A model generated the notes under the pieces. The model saw nothing but the letters and a program-made list of their open reading frames with translations. It did no database searches and was not told the DNA's origin. From Clostridiaceae bacterium (lineage in GTDB: Bacteria > Bacillota > Clostridia > DSM-8532): a DNA stretch of 24,000 nucleotides. The position numbers were made by a program, and so were the translations under genes. The stretch spans positions 4,577 to 28,576 of the forward strand of contig JAAYXD010000144.1 in the NCBI GenBank assembly GCA_012516065.1, written 5' to 3'. Positions 13,481 through 23,618 of this stretch are shown one piece after another (within the stretch, counting starts at the first letter, position 1; every line of letters begins with the position of its first letter).

Positions 13481-14341
<861 letters not shown>

Positions 14342-14355
14342 CTAACCTCCGTAAT

Positions 14356-15159
14356 CTATATGGTATATTCCGGCTGTGGCAGCGCACTTGCCAGATGCAG
14401 TTTTTCTAATATATTCCGTCGAAGGGAAAGAAATTCGGTTCCTCCACGATGCCGAGGATGTGGGAGATTAATCTCCATGATCTCACTGATTTTTCCGGGC
14501 CGCGGAGTCATAACCACAATACGGTCGGAAAGATAGATTGCTTCGTCCACATCGTGGGTTACCAGAATCATTGTCGTTTTATTTTCTTTATGAAGCTCAA
14601 GCAATTTATCCTGAATATCGGAACGGGTAAAGGAATCTAAGGCACTCATGGGTTCATCAAGAAGCAGTACCTTTGGATTATTGATCAATGCCCTGGCAAT
14701 AGCAACTCTCTGAGCCATACCTCCGCTTAACTGATGCGGGTAACATTTTTCAAACCCCTTAAGTCCAATCAGGTCTATATAATGGGCAATACGGTGTTTA
14801 TTCTCCCTATAAACATGGCGTGCCTTAAGTCCGGTTGCGATATTTTTCTCAACAGTCAGCCATTGAAAAAGACCTCCATGCTGAAAAACGTAGCCCCGCT
14901 CTGGATCTGGTCCGGAGATTTGCTCTCCGTTAAGAATCAGGGTTCCTGTTTCCGGCTTGTCAAGACCTGCTATAAGCCGTAAGAGCGTCGTCTTTCCGCA
15001 ACCGGAGGAACCTATGATGGAAAGGAATTCTCCCCGGCGGACGGACAAATTGATATCCCGAAGTACCTCAACATGGTTTCCGGCGTCGTCATAATAAGTG
15101 TAATTTACATTTTCTATATGTAAAATAATATCACTGATTACCGATAAGTTTTTGCTCAT
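14356..15159 (-). CDS. ABC transporter ATP-binding protein, NitT/TauT (nitrate/sulfonate/taurine) family
   Basis: Walker A is GSSGCGKTT, the signature is LSGGMAQRVAIARAL, Walker B is LLLDEP and the H-loop is VTHD. An ATGA overlap joins it to the permease stop at 15156-15159. Confidence 0.9.
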   Translation of the reverse strand: MSKNLSVISDIILHIENVNYTYYDDAGNHVEVLRDINLSVRRGEFLSIIGSSGCGKTTLLRLIAGLDKPETGTLILNGEQISGPDPERGYVFQHGGLFQWLTVEKNIATGLKARHVYRENKHRIAHYIDLIGLKGFEKCYPHQLSGGMAQRVAIARALINNPKVLLLDEPMSALDSFTRSDIQDKLLELHKENKTTMILVTHDVDEAIYLSDRIVVMTPRPGKISEIMEINLPHPRHRGGTEFLSLRRNILEKLHLASALPQPEYTI

Positions 15160-16223
15160 TCCTTAACCCATCCTTTCTGCCACCGGAGCACATTCGCCTG
15201 TATTAGCCCCAGTATTTTCATAATTAGACTGAACAGCAGGGCCATAACGAGAATGGAGGCAAATACCTTATAGTAGGCAGACCACACCTTGCTTAAATTT
15301 ATGTAGTAACCCAATCCTCCCGGCTGGCCCATCATCTCTGCCATTACCAAAGTTGTAAAAGCAAAACCATTGGCATTGGAAATACCGGTAAAAATCTGGG
15401 GCATGGCCTGAGGCACTGCAACATGGAATATTAAAAATGGCGTTTTTGCCCCCAGGGTGCGAGCTACTTCGAACTGATACTTTGGGGTGGATTGTATGCC
15501 CTGGGCTGTAAGAGCCGCAATGGAAAACCATGCGCATATTACAATAAGAAAAACAGCTGCTGAAAACGGAGACGGGAAAAGCGTCAGTGCAAAGGGCATC
15601 CACGCTACGGCAGGAATGACACCGGTAATCTTTAATATTGGATATACCCAATAATATACCTTTGGAAACCAACCGATTAAAATTCCCGTACCCACTCCAA
15701 ACACCACACCCAGAGTAAATCCGGCCAAAAAAAGTTTAATGGAGTAAAGGGTATTTTGTAAAATAAAATCTCCTTCAATCAAAAAGGATTCAAGAATTTT
15801 TGCCGGTCCCGGGAAAAACGGCTGCGGTAATAAAAGAAGCTTTGTTCCTAATATATCCCAAGCTGTAATAGCCAGACCCATAGCGAAACGAAAGGGAGCC
15901 TGCCTGGAAAATTTTTCTCTTCGCACAGGATCAAAATATGAAAATATTCCCATACCGGCATAAATCAAAATAATTACTACCAGGACCAATCGGTAAAGCA
16001 AATTAAATGTGAAGGGAATTCCTGCAACAAAATAAGTTTTGATTTCCACATTTGCCACTTGCTTCACCAGAATATTGGCTGCTATGGCTACAGCAAACCC
16101 TGCCAGTGTCAGTACAAAATTAGTACTCCAATTTTGGGCCGAAACCGTTTTTAGTTTTCCATATTGTTGCTTTACTTTTAATTCCGAGGATGTTGGGCTT
16201 TGTAGTTTTACTAAATCGTACAT
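15156..16223 (-). CDS. ABC transporter permease, NitT/TauT family (SsuC/TauC-like) with an N-terminal extension
   Basis: It is polytopic with an EAA-loop region 'ARTLGAKTPFLIFHVAVPQAMPQIFTGI'. AGGAGGT lies 8 nt upstream of the ATG at 16223. At 355 aa it is longer than I recall for SsuC/TauC, which are roughly 250-280 aa. Confidence 0.85.
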   Translation of the reverse strand: MYDLVKLQSPTSSELKVKQQYGKLKTVSAQNWSTNFVLTLAGFAVAIAANILVKQVANVEIKTYFVAGIPFTFNLLYRLVLVVIILIYAGMGIFSYFDPVRREKFSRQAPFRFAMGLAITAWDILGTKLLLLPQPFFPGPAKILESFLIEGDFILQNTLYSIKLFLAGFTLGVVFGVGTGILIGWFPKVYYWVYPILKITGVIPAVAWMPFALTLFPSPFSAAVFLIVICAWFSIAALTAQGIQSTPKYQFEVARTLGAKTPFLIFHVAVPQAMPQIFTGISNANGFAFTTLVMAEMMGQPGGLGYYINLSKVWSAYYKVFASILVMALLFSLIMKILGLIQANVLRWQKGWVKE

Positions 16224-16250
16224 AGCAGAATACCTCCTGTGGGGTGTTTA

Positions 16251-16285
16251 TTATTTCCGCCCGGTTCCTCCGGTTCACCGGGCGG
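16251..16285 (-). other. Perfect 11-bp GC-rich intercistronic stem-loop after the substrate-binding-protein gene
   Basis: TTTCCGCCCGG (16251-16261), a 13-nt loop, then CCGGGCGGAAA (16275-16285). No U-tract follows on the minus transcript. Its position just 3' of the SBP gene is typical of hairpins that stabilise the SBP segment of ABC operon mRNAs. Confidence 0.6.
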
Positions 16286-16303
16286 AAACAATCTTTGGAA
16301 ATA

Positions 16304-17365
16304 TTATAAACCCAGGTTGATGTCGACCTCGACATAAGCATTCTTTGTGAAAGTATCAGGATCCGTCTTTAAATATCCAATTTGGTTCAATTGTTCGGCA
16401 AAATAGTAAACATTGTCTCGAACCTGTGTTTTATTTTTTTCCCGTTCGGCATAAGAAGGGTATTGATAGCTCTTGATAAGCTTAATGGCTAATTCTCTGT
16501 CTTCAATCTGCGCGTATTTACCATTTATTATAATGTCGACGGCTTCTTCCGGGTTTTCCGAAATCCAGTTTTGGGCTGCCCTATATGCACGCAGCAATGC
16601 GGCAACCTGTTCTGGTTTTTCGTCAAGCAGCTTTTCCGAAGCATAAAGGAAACAGCAGTATTTTCCGGCAAAAGGTTCATCCTTGGAAATATCAAGAATT
16701 ACACGGTAATTTCCCGTTTTTTCCTGAACAGAGCCGAAGGGATCCCACAGTGCCGCAACATCAACCTCTCCTTTTCTCAGGGCTTCCACTGCCAGATTTC
16801 CGTCGGAGAAGGGAAGGAACGTAACTTCTCCGTCCTCCTGCTTTGCGGAAATTCCGTTTTTCTCCAGCCACACCGATGCTACCTGATGGGGAGTGCCGCC
16901 TATTTCATCAACGCTGATCTTTTTTCCCCTAAGGTCTTGAACTCCTTGAATCGGTGAATCCTTCGGAACAATCAGTTTTATGCATCCATAGTGGAGACCG
17001 TCCACCACCTTTACCTTCACATTGTTTTCAATAGAGGGAAAGAACTGAAAGTCCCCGTTGACAATCGGGATGGTACCGTTGTTCAAACCGATTTTACGGG
17101 TTTCGGTATCTGCCGATATAAGGTTGACATCAAAGCCCTCTTGCTTGAAAAAGCCCTTTTCATATGCAATATAGATAGGTGCACCGCAAAGTGAACCGTC
17201 TTTACCGGGAATATCAATTTTTCCGTATTTGTATTCTGCTGAAGATGTCCCCGTTTTCCCGTTGTCCTGGGTACCTCCCGTATTCGTCCTGCCACATCCG
17301 GAAAACAAGCCTATAAAAATGGAAAACAGAGCGACTGCACTGATCAATTTTATAAAACCTTTCAT
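16304..17365 (-). CDS. ABC transporter substrate-binding lipoprotein, NMT1/SsuA/TauA-like (NitT/TauT family)
   Basis: The signal peptide carries the lipobox 'LFSGCG'. The periplasmic-binding fold region resembles the aliphatic-sulfonate/NMT1 type. I trimmed the ORF to the ATG at 17365, downstream of GGGGTG. It starts 24 nt after the metY-like stop. Confidence 0.82.
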   Translation of the reverse strand: MKGFIKLISAVALFSIFIGLFSGCGRTNTGGTQDNGKTGTSSAEYKYGKIDIPGKDGSLCGAPIYIAYEKGFFKQEGFDVNLISADTETRKIGLNNGTIPIVNGDFQFFPSIENNVKVKVVDGLHYGCIKLIVPKDSPIQGVQDLRGKKISVDEIGGTPHQVASVWLEKNGISAKQEDGEVTFLPFSDGNLAVEALRKGEVDVAALWDPFGSVQEKTGNYRVILDISKDEPFAGKYCCFLYASEKLLDEKPEQVAALLRAYRAAQNWISENPEEAVDIIINGKYAQIEDRELAIKLIKSYQYPSYAEREKNKTQVRDNVYYFAEQLNQIGYLKTDPDTFTKNAYVEVDINLGL

Positions 17366-17389
17366 GATAAAACACACCCCTTTACGAAA

Positions 17390-18706
17390 TTATATATATG
17401 CCTTTTCAAACGCCTGTTCCAAATCAGCTATTAAATCTGCCGGATCTTCCAGTCCTGCCGATATGCGAATTAAGTTTTCCGGAATATCGGCAAATTTTTT
17501 CTCATCAGGCTCCAGTTCACTATGGGTGGTTTGCGGAGAATTTACAATCAGGCTGCGGGCATCCCCAATATTGACATGATAATGAAAGAGTTTCACTGAG
17601 TTCAAGAAAGTTTCCCTTTGAGCCGTTGTCCCTTTGAAACCGAATGACAGGATTCCTCCCGCTCCTTTTGGGAAATCCCTTTGTGCCAGCTCATAATAGG
17701 GGCTATCCTTCAAACCGGGGTAACGAACCCATTCCACCGACTTGTGGGATTTTAGGTATTCCGCCAGGATACTGGCATTACGCACTTGTTTTTCAACGCG
17801 CTCAGACAGGGTTTCCAATCCGATTAAAACAAGGTAGGCATCAAAAGGCGATAATGCCGCTCCAAAGTAGTTGAGATAGTTAAAGCGTATCCTGCCGGTA
17901 AACGGAGCCTCCGGAAATACTTCAAGAAAACTGCGGTAGTTATCGTTAATGTCCCGCAGGGTATAATACTTTTCCGAAAACTGAGGGAATTTATCGCTCT
18001 GCCAGTTGAATTTACCGCTTTCCAGCACCAGTCCGGCAATAACGTTTCCGTGTCCCGTCAATCCTTTGGTCGCAGAGTAGACCACAATGTCGGCCCCATG
18101 GGAAATAGGGTTATACAAGTACGGCGTTGCAACTGTATTGTCTACAATCAGAGGTATGCCATGTTCATGGGCGACTTTCGCAATCGCATCAATGTCCAAA
18201 AGAGCGGCATTGGGATTGCTGATGCTTTCCACATAGATTGCTTTGGTATCGGGCTTAATTTCTTCCGAAAGCTTTTCAGGATTTTCTATATTTTTAGCAA
18301 AATCGAAGGTTATACCAAATTTAGGATAAACTTTTTTAAAACTGTCCGCACTGCCGCCATAGAGATAGGGAGAAGTCAAAATACGACCTCCGCCCTCTGC
18401 AACATTGAGCAGAGTATAACTGATAGCTGCCATGCCGGAAGCCAGTGCCACTGCACCGCTGGCTCCGTCAAGGGCCGCTACCCGTTGCTCCAGTACAGCA
18501 ACCGTAGGATTTCCAATGCGGGTATAAAGGTTTCCCAATTCGCGAAGTCCAAATAAAGCTTTTGCATGCTCTACATCGCGAAAGTCAAAGGAAGTGGTCT
18601 GATAAATGGGCGGCGATACGGCATAGTTATGCTCCTTTGGATCATAGCCTGCCCGCAGTCTTTGAGTATCAAACCGATATGCAGTTTTTTCTAATTCGTT
18701 TGCCAT
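17390..18706 (-). CDS. metY: O-acetylhomoserine sulfhydrylase / aminocarboxypropyltransferase (Cys/Met-metabolism PLP enzyme)
   Basis: It belongs to the Cys_Met_Meta_PP family. Supporting motifs are 'YTRIGNPT', 'ASGMAAI', 'VDNTVATPYL' and the PLP-lysine context 'YSATKGLTGHG'. I trimmed the ORF to the ATG at 18706, which has AGGAGGAG 7 nt upstream. Confidence 0.9.
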   Translation of the reverse strand: MANELEKTAYRFDTQRLRAGYDPKEHNYAVSPPIYQTTSFDFRDVEHAKALFGLRELGNLYTRIGNPTVAVLEQRVAALDGASGAVALASGMAAISYTLLNVAEGGGRILTSPYLYGGSADSFKKVYPKFGITFDFAKNIENPEKLSEEIKPDTKAIYVESISNPNAALLDIDAIAKVAHEHGIPLIVDNTVATPYLYNPISHGADIVVYSATKGLTGHGNVIAGLVLESGKFNWQSDKFPQFSEKYYTLRDINDNYRSFLEVFPEAPFTGRIRFNYLNYFGAALSPFDAYLVLIGLETLSERVEKQVRNASILAEYLKSHKSVEWVRYPGLKDSPYYELAQRDFPKGAGGILSFGFKGTTAQRETFLNSVKLFHYHVNIGDARSLIVNSPQTTHSELEPDEKKFADIPENLIRISAGLEDPADLIADLEQAFEKAYI

Positions 18707-18780
18707 GTTAAATCTCCTCCTATAAATAAATTTGAAAGTATACATCGGGGCATTTCCGTCATGTCACAGTCACTACACAT
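18691..18780 (-). CDS. 29-codon upstream ORF MCSDCDMTEMPRCILSNLFIGGDLTWQTN (candidate Cys/Met-sensing leader peptide or Cys-rich micro-protein)
   Basis: It is below the ORF-track size cutoff and was found by hand translation of the minus strand. The ATG at 18780 has AGGAGGTG 7 nt upstream, one of the best SDs in the window. Three Cys and three Met (including the initiator) fall in the first 13 codons. The ORF reads across the metY SD and ends in a TAG 16 nt inside metY, in a different frame. Confidence 0.45.
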   Translation of the reverse strand: MCSDCDMTEMPRCILSNLFIGGDLTWQTN

Positions 18781-18860
18781 ATCAAACCACCTCCTAAAGG
18801 ATTGATAAATATACAGCTTTATTTCATCAAGTTACACTTGCTGCTGCCAATTTTTTATTT

Positions 18861-18908
18861 TTTTCAATCATGTAAACTTCTCTCTGTTCATCTGTTTTCA
18901 ATCATGTT
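18861..18908. repeat. Direct repeat TTTTCAATCATGT x2 with 35-nt periodicity in the nifB-like/metY spacer
   Basis: There are perfect 13-mers at 18861-18873 and 18896-18908. Extended to 17 nt they differ at two positions (TTTTCAATCATGTAAAC versus TTTTCAATCATGTTTAC). They lie in the only long non-coding gap (232 nt) of the cluster. Confidence 0.85.
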
Positions 18909-18977
18909 TACTTTCAACCTGCACAATATATAGGGCAATATCATTAACAAACTCTTAAGCTTTCAATTGCGCAACTT

Positions 18978-19853
18978 TTAGCCATGGGAAAAGGTATTTT
19001 CCAATTTTACAGGCCTAATATATAAACTTGAGGATATATCCTTACCGCCTGGAATTCCGGCAGCATCTGCTCTACAACGCTGGCAATGCCGGAATACATT
19101 GATATAGGCCTGGGCTTCTGACCTCACTTTGCTGATGAGATCACATCCCGGTGTGCTGCACCAGCTAAGCTTGTGCTGGGGAATCAGCGGAATAATGTTA
19201 TAGATTTTTGCTCCGTGCTGTGCAACAGTCTTTGCCACTTCCACCACATGATCCGCGTTGATCTCCGGGATTAACACTGTATTTACTTTTACGGTTATTC
19301 CTGATTGGGATACTTTCTTAATTCCGGCAAGTTGATTTTGAATAAGAATTTTTGCGGCTTCAATTCCTGTATAGCGCTTACCATGATAGACAATACCCTC
19401 GCAAATCTGTGCCTGTATTTCCGGGTCAACTGCATTGACGGTAACAGTCAGGCTGTCAATGCCCACATCAATAATCTCATCAGCGTATTCCGGCAGAAGA
19501 AGGCCGTTGGTGCTCATGCATTTTATAATATGAGGGAATTCCTGCTTGATAAGGCGAAAGGTCTGCAGTGCATAAGGTGTTGCCAGGGTATCACCCGGTC
19601 CGGCCACTCCCGCTACAGTAATATCGGGGCAAAGTTCCACCGCTCTTCTCACTGCATCTACAGCTTCCTGTGGTGTGATTATTCCGCTTGCAACCCCGGG
19701 ACGGTTATCCGTATCGTTGATGTCACGCTTGCAAAAATTGCAGGCAATATTGCACCCGTAAGATACCGGCAAATGAACACGACCCTTATTGTTTTTAGCT
19801 CCCGCCGCAAAACAGGGATGATTTTTTTTCAGATCTTCATATGTAAATGCCAT
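18978..19853 (-). CDS. NifB-like radical SAM protein (core domain only)
   Basis: 291 aa. 'RVHLPVSYGCNIACNFCKRD' carries the CxxxCxxC cluster in a NifB-like context. 'GPGDTLA' and the C-terminal 'CQRCRADAAG' resemble the NifB 'CRQCRADA' motif. SD AAGGAGGAA lies upstream of the ATG at 19853. Confidence 0.86.
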   Translation of the reverse strand: MAFTYEDLKKNHPCFAAGAKNNKGRVHLPVSYGCNIACNFCKRDINDTDNRPGVASGIITPQEAVDAVRRAVELCPDITVAGVAGPGDTLATPYALQTFRLIKQEFPHIIKCMSTNGLLLPEYADEIIDVGIDSLTVTVNAVDPEIQAQICEGIVYHGKRYTGIEAAKILIQNQLAGIKKVSQSGITVKVNTVLIPEINADHVVEVAKTVAQHGAKIYNIIPLIPQHKLSWCSTPGCDLISKVRSEAQAYINVFRHCQRCRADAAGIPGGKDISSSLYIRPVKLENTFSHG

Positions 19854-19865
19854 AAAACTTCCTCC

Positions 19866-20201
19866 TTAACCGCCTTCTTCATGCAAGCGGCCACCGACCA
19901 GTTGGGCAAGGATCTCTTCCACTTCACCGGTTGCTTCAAAGACTCTTTTGCCTTTGGCTATCATAACAGCTGCCGCAGCCTGACCTATTTTCAAAACAAA
20001 TATTGCATCACAGTCCTCCAACACTGAAAGAAGATGGTCAAATCCGCCTTCGCAATGACCCTGACATTTGGCGGCCGTTTTTCGGGTCTCCACAAAACGC
20101 GCCTCTTTATCCACATCATATATCTGCCAGTATCTGGCCGAGCCAAAGTGTTGATCAATAACAGTGCCGTCAATACTGGCAAATCCAATACGGTAACTCA
20201 T
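19866..20201 (-). CDS. NifX/NafY/NifB-C-terminal-domain protein (dinitrogenase Fe-Mo cofactor biosynthesis domain)
   Basis: 111 aa after trimming to the ATG at 20201, which has AAGGAGGG 7 nt upstream. 'IDQHFGSARYWQIYDV' matches the HFG-type motif of this small cofactor-binding fold. It sits directly upstream of the NifB-like gene, like a split NifB. Confidence 0.78.
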   Translation of the reverse strand: MSYRIGFASIDGTVIDQHFGSARYWQIYDVDKEARFVETRKTAAKCQGHCEGGFDHLLSVLEDCDAIFVLKIGQAAAAVMIAKGKRVFEATGEVEEILAQLVGGRLHEEGG

Positions 20202-20214
20202 ACGGTCGCCCTCC

Positions 20215-21558
20215 TTATGCATAGGTTGAAAGAACCGTCTGGTAGATGTCCTCTATAACCCGAAGCCCTCCTGTAAATCCTGCGTAATTGGTTGTCAAGA
20301 CCAACCGGTAGGGAGAAGGTAAAGCAGCTGAAAGGAAATCATAGCCTTTTTCTTTTGCCAGTTCCTTATCCCATCCTGAACCGATGATGAGGCCCCTTCC
20401 TTTATGATGGATTCCCCTAAGAATCTCCTGCGCCTTTCCCGCATCGGGCTCAAAATAAAGCGGAATTTCCTTTTTATCGCTGGTGCTTTTCAAATCGGCG
20501 CGAATGGCTTCATGGAATTTTTCCGGTGTAGCATCGGTAATAAATTGTTCCTTTGGTACAATTCCCACCTCGTGCAGCAAAAACTTAGACAGTGCGACGA
20601 CATATCCCGCGTCATGAAGGATATGGGCATGGTTGGGAAGACCGTAGCGAAACTCCAAAAGGAAGGTGGCAAGGTTATCAATCTCCTCATAGTAGGCATG
20701 GGACTCGTGACGGATAAACTCCTGGGCTGATTCTTTGTCAATATCTGCTCCTTGTTCGATGGCAAATTCCACAACTTGATTAAGGAACGCCTCGGTTTGA
20801 TTGGCACCTATGGGAATGTGATGAAACCATGTATATTCCTGCCCGTATTTGGATTTGAGGTGATCCGCAATGGGTTTTCCGTACCATGGGGAAACTAAAA
20901 TATTGAAAAGTGCTGTAGGTATGGACTGCCACTCTTTTACACCTCCCGACTGGGGTCCGAATAAAACATTGGCTTTAAGCCCAATACCGGCAAGCAGACG
21001 CTTGTATTCGGCCAGATTACCCTTCCAAAACGGATCCTGATACGGAATGGAGGCTATAAGATTCACTGTGTTTTTTTGCGATTTTGGCTTATTCTCATCT
21101 TCAAACCGGCTTACATATTGATCTATAATGGCATTAACCACAAGGCTGTGAGCTTCAAAGTTGGTGGCCTTAAATCCTGCAGTTTCCACGGATACAATCG
21201 GCTTACCCTTTTGGGCAAATTCAGAAACAAGGCTGTCCACATCGTCTCCGACAATACCGGCGGTGCAGCCGGTCAGAACCACCTGCAAATCCGTATCCAA
21301 TACTTTGTAGGTGTTTTCTATAATATCCCTCAGCCGGTTGATTCCGCCAAACACAACTTCTTTTTCTGTAAAGTTTGTGCAGGGAGATGTGGAACCGCCG
21401 GCGTATCCCGTTGACCGTTCAAAAAATCCGGCAATCATCTCGCCGCAGCCGGGACCGGAATGAAGAATCGGCACGGCCCGCGGAATAGCCACCACGGTTT
21501 GCAAAGCACCGATTGCACAGGTAAAACGTTCTTGTTCAATCAATCCGGATCTACTCAT
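20215..21558 (-). CDS. Nitrogenase component-1 beta-like subunit (NifK/NifN-like)
   Basis: 447 aa. The contexts 'FTCAIGALQ', 'ILHSGPGCGEM' and 'VLTGCTAGIVGDDVDS' correspond to the three P-cluster Cys contexts of NifK as I recall them. An ATGA overlap joins it to the alpha-like gene. Confidence 0.85.
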   Translation of the reverse strand: MSRSGLIEQERFTCAIGALQTVVAIPRAVPILHSGPGCGEMIAGFFERSTGYAGGSTSPCTNFTEKEVVFGGINRLRDIIENTYKVLDTDLQVVLTGCTAGIVGDDVDSLVSEFAQKGKPIVSVETAGFKATNFEAHSLVVNAIIDQYVSRFEDENKPKSQKNTVNLIASIPYQDPFWKGNLAEYKRLLAGIGLKANVLFGPQSGGVKEWQSIPTALFNILVSPWYGKPIADHLKSKYGQEYTWFHHIPIGANQTEAFLNQVVEFAIEQGADIDKESAQEFIRHESHAYYEEIDNLATFLLEFRYGLPNHAHILHDAGYVVALSKFLLHEVGIVPKEQFITDATPEKFHEAIRADLKSTSDKKEIPLYFEPDAGKAQEILRGIHHKGRGLIIGSGWDKELAKEKGYDFLSAALPSPYRLVLTTNYAGFTGGLRVIEDIYQTVLSTYA

Positions 21559-23030
21559 TTACCGGTACCTCCTTTCAGGAAATAATACGGCGGCTGCTCA
21601 AGCCACCATTTGGTGTATGGATTGATGGCATGCTTTTCGAGGTTTTTTACAAATTCATCGTTTTCAATAACTTCTAAAATACGCTCACCGTAATTGACCA
21701 GACCTTCATAACCCATGGAGTAATGTTCATCGCCAATTAAAAGTGACGGAATGCCCAGTTTTGCTCCCCAGAGAGTCATGCCGCCATGCCGGGCCAGCAA
21801 TACATCGGGACGGAGGCGGTTTAAGGCATTGACCAGCTCAAACTCCTGCTTGTTGCAAACATTGTAGTTAAAAACATTTCCATAATCGGCTACGCGCTGA
21901 GCCAGTTGGTCGTTTTCCTCACGTCCGCTGTCATAGATGGGGTCGTGATGGAAAATCGCTGCACCGACTGCTTTAATGCCAAGCTCTCCCAGTACATCCA
22001 GCAACGCATGGCCATGGGCAGCACCTGCTGTTACATAAGCCGTTTTTCCGGCCAATTTTTCCCGTAGAGCTTCAATTTTGGGCAGATACTCTTTCTTTTT
22101 TTCCGCAATGATTTTTTCAGCAATTTCTTCTTTGCCGAGGATCTTTCCCAACGCCCTGAACCATCTATCCGTTTGTGCAATACCGTAGGGTGGGGCGGCA
22201 GGAATTTCGGGAACACCAAAATCCTGTTCCAGCACTGCTCCCAGGTAGCTTCCCAGCGTGGAGCAAGCCTGGACGGTGGCAGCGGCCTCGCTGGCATATT
22301 TTAATCCGTTCACTGTAGAAAAAGGGATTATGTAATTGGGTTTTGCTCCAAAGGGAGCAAACCATTCGTAAAACACATCGCTGCCCCAGAAATTGATTAC
22401 ATTGATCATGTCATCCCGCCGCCTCCGGGGTTTTTGAATCAGCTTGCGTGCAATGCCGTGGTAAGCAGCGTCAAAACCTGTGGTCCATACTTTGGAACGA
22501 AAACCTTCGCAAAAGATGGCTACCACCGGTATTCCCAACTCTTCCTCGGCTTCGTTGCAAACGCTTTCCACATCATCGCCGATAATTCCGGCAGCGCATG
22601 TGGTCAATACAAAAATAGCGTTGGCATGCGTTCTCTCATATACCTCTCGAATGGTATTGGCAAGCTTTATATTTCCTCCGTAAACTGTATCCTTTTCCTT
22701 TAGATTGGTGGAAAAGATACGGCGTGGTGTGGGACGTTCAATACCGCGCAAAGGATAATTCACCCGATAGGTAAAGGCAAATTCATGCAGACAGGAAGCA
22801 CAGCCCACCGGTCCATGGCTGATGACTGCAGCGTCCTGAATTAACACAGTCATACAGGCCGCTTTTGAGGTAGCACAGCCCAGGCATTGGCTAAAGGAAC
22901 GTTCTTTATCCTTCAGACCGAATTCGCGGGCTTCTACCAGTTCCTTAGCATCTCCCTGATAACCCGTTATTGAATTAATACGAATTTCCCTTATCTGTAC
23001 TTCCGGAAGGGATAAATTTATTTTTGACAT
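21555..23030 (-). CDS. Nitrogenase component-1 alpha-like subunit (NifD/NifE-like)
   Basis: 491 aa. 'CLGCATSKAACMTV', 'VISHGPVGCASC' and 'VLTTCAAGIIGDDVESV' match NifD P-cluster Cys contexts. 'VQACSTLGSYLGAVLEQDFGVPE' aligns by eye with the NifD '[22 protein letters not shown]' cofactor-Cys region. 'KLGIPSLLIGDEHYSMGYEG' resembles the cofactor-His region. GGAGTG lies 7 nt upstream of the ATG at 23030. Confidence 0.85.
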   Translation of the reverse strand: MSKINLSLPEVQIREIRINSITGYQGDAKELVEAREFGLKDKERSFSQCLGCATSKAACMTVLIQDAAVISHGPVGCASCLHEFAFTYRVNYPLRGIERPTPRRIFSTNLKEKDTVYGGNIKLANTIREVYERTHANAIFVLTTCAAGIIGDDVESVCNEAEEELGIPVVAIFCEGFRSKVWTTGFDAAYHGIARKLIQKPRRRRDDMINVINFWGSDVFYEWFAPFGAKPNYIIPFSTVNGLKYASEAAATVQACSTLGSYLGAVLEQDFGVPEIPAAPPYGIAQTDRWFRALGKILGKEEIAEKIIAEKKKEYLPKIEALREKLAGKTAYVTAGAAHGHALLDVLGELGIKAVGAAIFHHDPIYDSGREENDQLAQRVADYGNVFNYNVCNKQEFELVNALNRLRPDVLLARHGGMTLWGAKLGIPSLLIGDEHYSMGYEGLVNYGERILEVIENDEFVKNLEKHAINPYTKWWLEQPPYYFLKGGTGK

Positions 23031-23514
23031 TTGTCATCACTCCGTTCGCTAAAGATTCCAAACTTTTTTCACTCATTCGATATGTACGCCGGTCTAAAAG
23101 GGGAACTGCCCCCAGATGCTTATAAAACCTTGAGCCGCTTTTATTGTCCTCAAGTACATACCAGTCAAGACGTTTCGCATCCATTTGCAAAGCTTTCTTT
23201 GCAAGCTGTTTCATAAGTGCTTTACCAATACCCTTACCTCGATATTCTTCTTTCACAAACAGGTCTTCTAAAAAGAGGTTTTGCCGTCCGGAGAAGGTGG
23301 AATATACGGGATAAAACAGTGCAAAGGCTGCGGGATTACCGTCAATTTCAGCTATTAAAACATTTGCCTGTCTTTTTTGAAAAAGGGATTCCCGAAGCTC
23401 TGCTTCAGTCGTTGTAACCTCTTTGCCCATCCCCTCAAATTCTGCAAGTTCTTTAATAAACGAAAGCACCAATGCACTGTCAGATATATCCGCTTCTCTA
23501 ATATGTAAGTCCAT
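22975..23514 (-). CDS. GNAT N-acetyltransferase, spermidine/spermine (SSAT)/diamine acetyltransferase-like
   Basis: 179 aa after trimming to the ATG at 23514, which has GGGGTGG 5 nt upstream. It runs colinear with my recollection of human SSAT. The matching pairs are 'FIKELAEFEGM' versus 'LIKELAKYEYM', 'LFLEDLFVKEEYRGKGIGKAL' versus '[21 protein letters not shown]', and 'SRFYKHLGA' versus 'INFYKRRGA'. The 3' end overlaps the NifD-like start by 56 nt. Confidence 0.85.
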   Translation of the reverse strand: MDLHIREADISDSALVLSFIKELAEFEGMGKEVTTTEAELRESLFQKRQANVLIAEIDGNPAAFALFYPVYSTFSGRQNLFLEDLFVKEEYRGKGIGKALMKQLAKKALQMDAKRLDWYVLEDNKSGSRFYKHLGAVPLLDRRTYRMSEKSLESLANGVMTNVKNKFIPSGSTDKGNSY

Positions 23515-23562
23515 AAAAACCACCCCTTTTGTATTAAACATATATGATTAGTATGTTTTAAA

Positions 23563-23591
23563 ATATTACACTTTTCTATATACAATGTCAA
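23563..23591 (-). promoter_or_regulatory. Sigma-A-type promoter candidate for the GNAT/nitrogenase-like operon
   Basis: On the minus strand, TTGACA (23591-23586) is followed by a 17-nt spacer and TAATAT (23568-23563). It lies about 45 nt upstream of the GNAT start. A 7-bp inverted repeat, AAACATA-N9-TATGTTT (23536-23558), lies between the -10 element and the SD. Confidence 0.55.
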
Positions 23592-23618
23592 GCATTTTTT
23601 ATTAAACTTATATGAATG

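Follow-up and report, generated by a model that had tools for sequence, protein, structure and literature searches.

The window analysed here, a 24,000-nt stretch of contig JAAYXD010000144.1 from a Clostridiaceae bacterium, carries a nitrogenase-like gene cluster (Table 1) in which PF00148 occurs twice, together with PF00142, a NifB-like radical SAM protein, PF02579, PF01053 and an SsuA-type ABC system. Among its genes is metY, a paralog specific to the cluster; a second metY paralog, 48% identical, is found elsewhere in the genome. Synteny of the cluster is conserved, and the order MetY-SBP-permease-ATPase is preserved in related loci. As judged by gene content, nifB-, nifH-, nifD- and nifK-like genes alongside genes of sulfur assimilation place the cluster in a Mar-type context; with metY and an SsuA-type importer added to them, as in the methylthio-alkane reductase systems (PMC13753814), this context would fit control by sulfur. 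Gene order suggests that the window may match the C. thermocellum locus Cthe_1565-1573. Published arrays recorded a 4-8-fold rise of Cthe_1569 (metY) along with other Cys/Met genes (PMC4236516), which, if the two loci correspond, would count in favour of control by sulfur amino acids.

Table 1. Position of the leader ORF, its neighbouring elements and the surrounding genes in the window.
Feature	Position	Strand	Basis or remark
NifD-like	21555-23030	-	Upstream half of cluster
NifK-like	20215-21558	-	Upstream half of cluster
NifX-like	19866-20222	-	Upstream half of cluster
NifB-like radical SAM	18978-19853	-	Upstream half of cluster
Upstream half of cluster, whole	18978-23030	-	
Small two-stem element	18813-18847	-	18-52 nt 5' of leader Shine-Dalgarno; RNAalifold consensus
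Leader Shine-Dalgarno, AGGAGGTG	18788-18795	-	7-nt spacer to leader ATG
Leader ORF, 29 sense codons MCSDCDMTEMPRCILSNLFIGGDLTWQTN plus TAG stop	18691-18780	-	ORF listing and minus-strand reading
Leader start, ATG	18780-18778	-	Minus-strand reading
N-terminal sensor block, leader codons 2-5, Cys-Ser-Asp-Cys (TGT AGT GAC TGT)	18766-18777	-	
Leader Met codons 7 and 10 (ATG ACG GAA ATG)	18751-18762	-	
Pro-Arg-Cys, leader codons 11-13 (CCC CGA TGT)	18742-18750	-	
metY Shine-Dalgarno, AGGAGGAG, within leader ORF	18714-18721	-	7-nt spacer to metY ATG
metY start, ATG	18706-18704	-	
Leader stop, TAG	18693-18691	-	Minus-strand reading
metY, O-acetylhomoserine sulfhydrylase, 438 aa, cluster-specific paralog	17390-18706	-	Pfam PF01053 5.9e-122; TIGR01326 2.6e-148
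SsuA-like binding protein	16304-17377	-	Downstream, co-directional with metY
Permease	15156-16223	-	Downstream, co-directional with metY
ATPase	14356-15159	-	Downstream, co-directional with metY
NifH-like	13481-14335	-	Downstream, co-directional with metY
Downstream co-directional block, whole	13481-17377	-	

A short Cys/Met-rich ORF, noticed upstream of metY in a preliminary description of this DNA, was confirmed on the minus strand in its position, in the spacing of its Shine-Dalgarno (SD) sequence and in its overlap with metY: it runs across the metY SD and ATG and terminates 16 nt within the gene. Minus-strand translation gives an N-terminus of MCSDCDMTEMPRC, with Cys at codons 2, 5 and 13 and Met at codons 1, 7 and 10, so that six of the first 13 codons specify Cys or Met, as had been described. 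There are no consecutive Cys codons in this leader, only C-S-D-C and then the isolated Cys13, and the last base of Pro-Arg-Cys lies 20 nt 5' of the metY SD. Codons 2-13 hold three Cys and two internal Met, residues with genome frequencies of 1.2% and 2.5%, respectively; in this genome TGT, with 31%, is the less used of the two Cys codons, and CGA the rarest one for Arg (4%). A scan of the 3.07-Mb genome for GGAGG-led ORFs of at least eight codons returned 1,538, nine of which have at least three Cys in codons 2-13, and the leader is the sole one with Cys+Met of at least five. Of the eight other Cys-rich ORFs, the six short ones, when checked, all proved to sit inside longer ORFs, and the remaining two have 64 and 167 codons. 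By itself, then, the composition of the leader is only moderately unusual. A genome-wide 'Cys ribulon' was also considered and rejected, given the nesting of the six short ORFs, the lack of any other MCxDC start pattern in the genome and the single copy of the upstream motif described below.

Fourteen distinct leader variants were found 5' of cluster-type metY genes in Acetivibrio and other Bacillota (WIN denotes the window, L-numbers the related loci); many of them share descent, and the counts given here overstate their independence. A strong SD (GGAGGTG, or GGCGGTG or AGGGGTG, with a spacer of 6-8 nt), a start codon and the N-terminal Cys codons (the MC[SC]DC core) are kept in all 14, with two to four Cys codons in the first 5-13; L027, a close relative of the window, has Ser at codon 2. 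The Cys codons vary synonymously, from TGT to TGC at codons 2, 3 and 5 in L077, L036 and L048, and the Ser (AGT/AGC) and Asp (GAC/GAT) codons of the sensor block likewise change between lineages, which argues for selection on the meaning of the codons rather than on the bases. Only L002, L036, L048, L077 and L034 have Cys codons in succession, and the nine bases of Pro-Arg-Cys are identical in WIN, L026, L027, L030, L002, L036 and L077. Met codons, in the form of D-M repeats, are confined to WIN, L026, L027, L028, L074 and L075, where the Acetivibrio-like sub-clade shows the patterns DMTEM, DMSDMADM and DDMSDM; in other lineages additional Cys takes their place. The rest of the leader is free: its length ranges from 12 to 87 codons, its tail sequence, frame and stop position vary, and between L026 and L030, whose MetY is 96% identical to that of the window, a 1-nt indel produces a different tail frame and stop. 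Leader stops fall anywhere between 20 nt upstream and 193 nt downstream of the metY ATG, while the leader and metY start codons are 59-89 nt apart and a gap of 17-30 nt, with a mode of 20 nt, separates the last Cys/Met sensor codon from the metY SD. The leader frame is open beyond the metY ATG in 13 of the 14 variants, the exception being L031, where it stops 20 nt before that codon; the other two frames are open in 0/14 and 1/14.

The cluster-type clade of the MetY tree has a support of 100/100 and includes the leader in 13 of its 18 rows, across its sub-clades, and five members without it; none of the eight outgroup rows has one. In L027 the nifDKXB genes upstream have been lost, and the leader and metY are retained. 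Conservation of the ORF and of its Cys/Met codons in related genomes, on which the preliminary description had staked its interpretation, was found for the ORF, its SD and the Cys codons in these variants and clade rows, but the Met codons persist in the Acetivibrio-like sub-clade alone. The putative signal that is universally conserved is Cys, with Met joining it in that sub-clade.

No terminator-like site was found in 18600-19100, the spacer folds no better than shuffled sequences (z = +0.75; -1.3 to +2.1 over the 14 leader regions), and no helix sequestering the metY SD is common to the 14 variants, in which the predicted unpaired probability of this SD is 0.37-0.89; in the window it is predicted to be mostly unpaired. 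The earlier statement that no obvious terminator/antiterminator pair is present therefore holds, and an ermC-like hairpin over the metY SD was rejected for want of a common helix. Several MFE folds paired the region around the leader start (GGUUUGAUAUG) with that around the metY start; this pairing was likewise discarded, as RNAduplex values compared with shuffles were non-significant in 13 of the 14 variants. Rfam models gave no match at gathering score in the whole window; in 18400-19300, relaxing the cut-off to E of 10 brought up snoRNA/CRISPR noise only, and upstream of metY there was no SAM, T-box or other match. Elsewhere the same genome has a single SAM-I riboswitch and no fewer than 12 T-boxes, none of them at the leader-metY locus. 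Nor did Rfam find a regulator 5' of the housekeeping metY paralogs or of the loci that lack a leader. The small two-stem element upstream of the leader, as modelled by RNAalifold on six sequences, consists of P1 (GCAGC/GCUGU) and P2 (CAAGU-GUA-ACUUG), includes the invariant block AAUAAAGCUG and has compensatory changes in four of its ten pairs; its motif is single copy in the genome. A promoter was considered for this conserved element and dismissed, since manual inspection found no consistent -35/-10 pair across the variants; a promoter scan returned one weak site only, farther upstream.

Several other readings of these observations have to be weighed. That a chance ORF in an AT-rich spacer could account for the leader is hardly credible, even though short ORFs are plentiful (103 of at least 25 residues in 8 kb) and nine SD-led ORFs with at least three Cys exist genome-wide. 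What raises the leader above chance is its conservation in 14 variants spread through the cluster-type MetY clade, with codon-level signatures; besides, the core pattern was matched in three of 401 Clostridia genomes, only at this type of locus, and the reversed control in none. The conserved bases might instead act at the RNA or DNA level, as a protein or sRNA site, as an mRNA 5' stabilizer built on the strong SD, or as part of a promoter or operator with the two-stem element, the reading frame being incidental. In nine variants, a 30-nt block spanning the GGAGGTG through codon 6 hardly varies in its bases, so a constraint of this kind could also act; CCCCGATGT is identical in seven, and the element with compensatory changes lies just upstream. 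Yet L031, L034, L036, L048, L064 and L077 alter bases while keeping the Cys codons and an open frame, the openness past the metY start is particular to the leader frame, and the single copy of the motif speaks against a regulon-type operator, which leaves this reading very unlikely. The preliminary description had named a genuine CxxC micro-protein as its alternative, for instance a Cys/Asp/Met-rich peptide binding a metal or cluster for the nitrogenase-like enzyme, or one modified by a radical SAM enzyme. CxxC with Asp/Met resembles metal-binding motifs, the N-terminal MC[SC]DC[DE] motif is conserved, and in the window the leader adjoins the NifB-like radical SAM gene; that gene, however, is not beside the leader in L031, L036 and L064. 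Only about five or six residues are conserved in peptides of 12 to 87 residues, and the tail is whatever the out-of-frame reading of metY yields, free to vary along with the stop, which argues against such a product. The peptide is absent from a collection of 15 billion proteins, was predicted by no gene caller there and, up to E of 10, matches no Pfam or NCBIfam family; we hold a micro-protein to be quite improbable.

The effect of leader translation may also be activating, not repressing. Its strong SD would then recruit ribosomes that reinitiate at the metY start or open it, and the Cys codons would lower expression when Cys-tRNA is scarce, or be irrelevant. A stop 16 nt past the metY ATG, as seen in the window and its closest relatives, fits the geometry of termination-reinitiation, and a boost to downstream translation by leader ORFs has been proposed (PMC4833913). 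Against this stands the scatter of stop positions between -20 and +193 nt around the metY ATG, too wide for reinitiation to be conserved; it makes termination-reinitiation coupling, also raised in the preliminary description, unlikely as a general mechanism. Moreover, metY has a strong SD of its own with ideal spacing, and the region has no structure that would need melting. To switch off sulfur salvage during cysteine scarcity would be physiologically senseless, and the conservation of the Cys codons would be left unexplained. An enhancing role is, on balance, unlikely.

It is instead probable, as far as comparison of the variants can tell, that the leader ORF works in cis as a leader peptide reporting to the translation start of metY how much charged tRNA-Cys is available and, in the Acetivibrio-like lineage, how much charged elongator tRNA-Met as well. 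The leader-peptide interpretation of the preliminary description is supported in this sense, the response to Cys/Met being putative. Because the leader overlaps the metY start, its output is most likely translational, and metY would be gated by ribosome traffic across its start, not by alternative RNA folds; the transporter and nifH-like genes downstream are possibly under the same control. Stalling, the direction of its effect and its reach beyond metY are all steps that we infer.

How such control might operate can be proposed only tentatively, in the form of a structure-independent 'traffic gate', a bacterial counterpart of ATF4-type control. The leader, with its very strong SD, would be translated constitutively, and with ample cysteine the ribosomes would traverse it out of frame over the metY SD and ATG, keeping 30S subunits off the metY start and metY repressed. 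When Cys-tRNA (or Met-tRNA) becomes scarce, ribosomes would stall within codons 2-5 and on the codons for Pro-Arg-Cys or Asp-Met, parked at a fixed distance of about 20 nt upstream of the SD of metY. With the last sensor codon in its A site, a ribosome would reach to within about 7-10 nt of that SD, and a queued ribosome would then block the leader start, so that traffic over the metY start would halt, and the unstructured, strong metY SD would be freed for translation. Very short peptidyl-tRNAs tend to drop off, and stalling at codons 2-5 may therefore be inefficient. In ermC of Bacillus, a stalled ribosome near the 5' end protects the mRNA from decay; a ribosome parked near the 5' end of the present transcript could similarly shield it from 5'-end-dependent decay, in which case the transporter and nifH-like genes would be affected as well. 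The leader would then be a dual Cys/Met sensor that switches on the uptake and reductase half of an organosulfur-salvage system in Clostridia.

Firmicutes normally use T-boxes and riboswitches, and amino-acid leader peptides are rare among them. As of 2010, the His leader of Bacilli was the sole amino-acid leader reported in this phylum (PMC2965389), and cysteine-sensing leaders have so far been shown mainly in mycobacteria (10.1101/834739). If correct, a Cys (and Met) leader in Clostridia would extend cysteine-sensing leader control to a new phylum, in a form that works without alternative RNA folds. It would also provide the first concrete regulatory handle on the Mar/Nfl-type nitrogenase-like sulfur-salvage clusters, which are important in anaerobic organosulfur cycling and in the release of methane and ethylene. 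Members of the cellulolytic Acetivibrio/C. thermocellum group are usually cultured with cysteine in the medium, and half of the cluster would, on the same reading, be held off in them under standard laboratory conditions.

Several known systems share features with this locus. By its gene content it resembles the Mar / Group IV nitrogenase-like sulfur clusters, in which nifB/H/D/K-like genes likewise accompany metY and an ABC importer of the organosulfur type; excerpts of the papers on these systems (PMC13753814, PMC12552129, PMC13474568) describe their expression under sulfur limitation in the organisms studied and contain no mention of a leader peptide or riboswitch. As in leader peptides generally, the ORF has its own SD and start directly 5' of metY, the putatively sensed codons are enriched and conserved and the remainder is free. 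Like trpL, hisL, leuL and thrL of Proteobacteria and the His leader of Bacilli (PMC2965389), it is short, SD-led and rich in codons for the amino acid served, and ribosome position would be the signal, as in classical transcription attenuators; unlike these, it has no terminator/antiterminator pair. A true classical Cys leader was seen in passing at the Dehalococcoidia locus L054. With ermC and cat-type attenuation in Firmicutes the locus shares an SD-led leader immediately 5' of the regulated gene, where a stalled ribosome would change access to the second SD and may also stabilize the mRNA, yet the trigger would be a hungry codon rather than a drug acting with the nascent peptide, and no hairpin covers the second SD. 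In its logic only, without homology, the proposed gate resembles the eukaryotic ATF4 uORF2, which depends on scanning and reinitiation: there too, an ORF ahead of the main one runs out of frame across its start, represses when translated and releases when untraversed.

The nearest known parallel is offered by the mycobacterial polycysteine sORFs (Ms5788A, the 'Cys ribulon'), which are Cys-responsive translational attenuators (Canestrari et al. 2020, 10.1101/834739) and had been predicted before by Seliverstov et al. 2005 (PMC1262725); these differ in several respects. They are leaderless, with a 5' AUG/GUG at the transcription start site, and belong to Actinobacteria, whereas the present leader is SD-led in all variants and occurs in Clostridia (Bacillota). 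Their Cys codons come as at least two in a row, whereas those of the window are spaced (C-x-x-C ... C); the mycobacterial leaders form a multi-operon set, this one a single locus that physically overlaps the downstream start and adds Met codons in one sub-clade. In mycobacteria a duplex sequestering the ribosome-binding site is blocked by the stalled ribosome, and no such duplex over that of metY was detected here. What the two have in common is a short Cys-rich ORF directly 5' of sulfur or cysteine genes without an intrinsic terminator, and a proposed pausing of ribosomes at scarce Cys-tRNA with its output on downstream translation.

Upstream of metY, the cluster-specific O-acetylhomoserine sulfhydrylase gene, the window carries a 29-codon ORF rich in Cys and Met that we regard as quite likely to be a regulatory leader. 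The minus-strand sequence bears out each element of the preliminary description of this ORF, namely its SD, start, peptide, overlap with metY and stop 16 nt into that gene. The longest in-frame ORF of metY starts at 18745, while its SD and the N-termini of homologues back the ATG at 18706 as the start; the leader therefore spans the metY SD and ATG in a different frame and ends inside metY. The genome has 1,538 ORFs of eight or more codons with a GGAGG SD, and this one alone has at least five Cys plus Met in codons 2–13. Nine of the 1,538 have at least three Cys in these codons; of the other eight, two have 64 and 167 codons, and the six short ones, which were checked, are nested in longer ORFs. 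Cys and Met make up 1.2% and 2.5%, respectively, of codons in the long ORFs of the genome, and the composition by itself is suggestive, a pointer beyond chance and not proof. The peptide has no gene-caller prediction in a collection of 15 billion proteins and matched no Pfam or NCBIfam model.

Features of the gene cluster and of the metY upstream region (window coordinates)
Feature	Position	Strand	Remark
Near-consensus promoter TTGACA, 17 nt, TAATAT, and AAACATA...TATGTTT inverted repeat	23514-23600	-	5' of GNAT gene
GNAT gene	opens cluster	-	co-directional gene
NifD/E-like	21555-23030	-
NifK/N-like	20215-21558	-
NifX-like	19866-20222	-
NifB-like radical SAM	18978-19853	-
Spacer, ~270 nt	NifB-like gene to metY ATG	-	contains leader ORF
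Direct repeat ACATGATTGAAAA	18861-18873 and 18896-18908	-	perfect, 13 nt
Two-stem element	18813-18847	-	18-52 nt upstream of leader SD
Leader SD AGGAGGTG	18795-18788	-	7-nt spacer to ATG
Leader ORF start ATG	18780	-
Leader peptide MCSDCDMTEMPRCILSNLFIGGDLTWQTN	TAG stop 18693-18691	-
metY SD AGGAGGAG	18721-18714	-	7-nt spacer to ATG 18706
metY	17390-18706	-
SsuA-type binding protein, permease, ATPase	between metY and NifH-like gene	-
NifH-like	13481-14335	-

Judged from gene content, the ten co-directional genes on the minus strand are arranged like a nitrogenase-like system for sulfur salvage of the methylthio-alkane reductase type. The enzyme of such systems releases methanethiol, which O-acetylhomoserine sulfhydrylase then fixes (PMC13753814, PMC12552129). 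The nearest public relatives are Acetivibrio species (MetY 96% identical), and the gene order agrees with that of Cthe_1565 (nitrogenase homologue), Cthe_1569 (metY) and Cthe_1573 (nifH) as numbered in publications. A second, housekeeping-type metY paralog (48% identical; contig C81:2207-3478) has no Rfam element within 1.5 kb; elsewhere the genome holds just one SAM-I riboswitch, on a different contig (C90:2606-2706), and at least 12 T-boxes. The GNAT gene, which probably starts with its SD at ATG 23514 rather than 23541, is preceded by a near-consensus promoter and an inverted repeat; no Cys-rich leader was found in that region.

MetY searches of genomes and metagenomes yielded loci with the same synteny, and a homologous leader ORF lies upstream of metY in 14 distinct sequences, many of them related by descent. 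The N-terminus reads MCSDCDM(A/T)(E/D)MPRC in the Acetivibrio group (MSSDC in one member); other variants are MCSDCDMCSDCDMPEM, with the module duplicated, MCSDCDDMSDMYQ, MCSDCDMSDMADMYQ, MCSDCDGRYSNF (12 codons), MCCDCTRKDNPRC, MCCDCSKQDKPRC, (TTG)CCDCELQEIPRC, MCCDCDPSDCTGMP, MECECSVSDCCS and MCTESECSHC. A GGAGGTG-type SD with 6–8 nt spacing precedes all 14. The variants differ by synonymous changes in Cys (TGT/TGC), Ser (AGT/AGC) and Asp (GAC/GAT) codons, and selection therefore appears to act on codon meaning. Past about codon 13–17 conservation ceases: lengths range from 12 to 87 codons, and stops from 20 nt before to 193 nt after the metY ATG. L026 and L030, loci whose MetY proteins are each 96% identical to that of the window, are set apart by a 1-nt indel that falls after the metY SD and before its ATG. 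It shortens the SD spacing from 7 to 6 nt and switches the frame of the leader tail, whose stop then lies 38 instead of 16 nt into metY, a natural experiment showing that the tail sequence is dispensable. The tandem duplicate of the sensor module in L028 (L028:2912-3049 (+); MCSDCD MCSDCD M...) shows that the Cys block evolves as one unit.

In the MetY tree, the cluster-type clade (100/100 support) carries the leader in 13 of 18 rows, across its sub-clades, and the outgroup in none of eight; the simplest history would be an ancestral leader followed by about three losses. In L027 (Clostridiaceae bacterium DTU079; L027:1-3000 (+)) the upstream nifDKX genes are replaced and the NifB-like gene is a short 3' remnant, yet spacer, leader, metY and transporter genes are all intact; the upstream region also holds a distant Cys/Met PLP-enzyme gene. 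Of 401 Clostridia genomes sampled, 3 contain the core leader pattern, always at this locus type, and none contains its reversed control. Conservation of the ORF and its Cys codons in related genomes, proposed as a check in the preliminary description, was thus found, and it is this comparative evidence, not composition, that appears decisive in separating the leader from chance. The label 'Cys/Met' suits the window and not the whole family, whose signal is Cys: Cys codons are present in all 14 variants, whereas Met codons (D-M repeats) are confined to six, all in the Acetivibrio-like sub-clade, with extra Cys in place of Met in the other lineages. Since the D-M arrangements differ (DMTEM, DMSDMADM, DDMSDM, DMCSDCDMPEM), the Met codons look maintained in that sub-clade.

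Known RNA regulators are excluded at the leader/metY region within reach of the methods used. It contains no Rfam family and no terminator, and neither the spacer nor any of the 14 leader regions folds better than shuffled sequence, in keeping with the earlier failure to find an obvious terminator/antiterminator pair. The metY SD is largely unpaired in predicted folds, and no helix sequestering it is common to the 14 variants; pairing of the leader start with the metY start, seen in some folds, was rejected as no better than shuffles in 13 of 14. A conserved two-stem element (P1 GCAGC/GCUGU; P2 CAAGU-GUA-ACUUG; invariant AAUAAAGCUG) shows compensatory changes in L026 (CUGC/GCAG), L028 and L074 (CGAGU/ACUCG) and L075 (CGGC/GCCG), and in L028, L074 and L075 lies almost directly after the NifB-like stop codon. 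It occurs once in the genome and has no Rfam match; possible roles are those of leaky terminator, mRNA end structure and operator. The 13-nt direct repeat sits in the extra ~150 nt of the Acetivibrio group between the NifB-like gene and this element. L027 has related TTAACATG-type repeats; of the 13-mer itself the genome has only two other copies, both unrelated.

How the leader might act is suggested by its geometry. Its frame runs past both the SD and the ATG of metY without a stop in 13 of the 14 variants (the remaining two frames do so in 0 and 1 of 14), the two starts lie 59–89 nt apart, and the last Cys/Met sensor codon precedes the metY SD by 17–30 nt, most commonly 20 nt. A ribosome covers ~10 nt past its A-site codon, so that one starved at the last sensor codon would halt just before the region where metY translation initiates, and the next ribosome in the queue would cover the start of the leader. 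Seven variants of the Pro-Arg-Cys sub-group share all nine bases of CCC CGA TGT; with CGA the least used Arg codon of the genome (4%) and TGT the less frequent of its Cys codons (31%), this fits a site built for slow translation. With ample Cys-tRNA, ribosomes from the strong leader SD would run over the metY start and hamper initiation. When Cys-tRNA (or Met-tRNA in the Acetivibrio-like clade) is scarce, ribosomes would be held upstream, traffic over the start would stop, and the strong, unstructured metY SD could be used. A ribosome parked near the 5' end might also stabilise the mRNA, as happens with ermC in Bacillus, and would then bring the transporter and nifH-like genes under the same control. 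Every step from Cys-tRNA supply to mRNA stabilisation is inferred from sequence, and we hold this occlusion mechanism and its direction only tentatively, at best as an even prospect. Termination-reinitiation coupling between leader and metY, also raised in the preliminary description, is compatible with the 16-nt overlap in the window but at odds with the variable stops of the other variants. The broader proposal made there, an attenuator-type leader sensing amino acids, is supported by the conserved SD, the Cys codons with synonymous changes and the free tail.

Up to 2010, reports of leader peptides in Firmicutes were limited to a His leader of Bacilli (PMC2965389), and the portions consulted of the literature on methylthio-alkane reductase and nitrogenase-like sulfur clusters, including a 2026 review, mention no leader peptide or riboswitch. 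Cthe_1569 rose 4-8 fold with other Cys/Met genes on arrays of hydrolysate-stressed C. thermocellum (PMC4236516), an mRNA-level change that is consistent with the leader model and favours no mechanism. What looks like classical transcription attenuation by a cysteine leader peptide, in Chloroflexota, was seen in a Dehalococcoidia MAG (L054:649-770 (+), also L055). There an 18-codon ORF, MLCVCCCTTRYRLSVRCS, and after it a strong intrinsic terminator (GC stem and T-run; fold z = -3.05) precede cysH (PAPS reductase), a gene for a 2-hydroxyacid dehydrogenase and metY. Cys leaders without terminators have been predicted upstream of cys/cbs genes in Actinobacteria (PMC1262725), and those of M. smegmatis are translational attenuators, in which ribosome stalling prevents an RNA duplex from sequestering the next RBS (10.1101/834739). 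Unlike these mycobacterial leaders, which form a regulon, the leader described here belongs to a single locus, is SD-led, overlaps the downstream start, lacks consecutive Cys codons in the window and has no detectable duplex. The logic is nevertheless common to both, and the sequence evidence supports an amino-acid-sensing leader peptide whose nearest kin would be the mycobacterial Cys attenuators.
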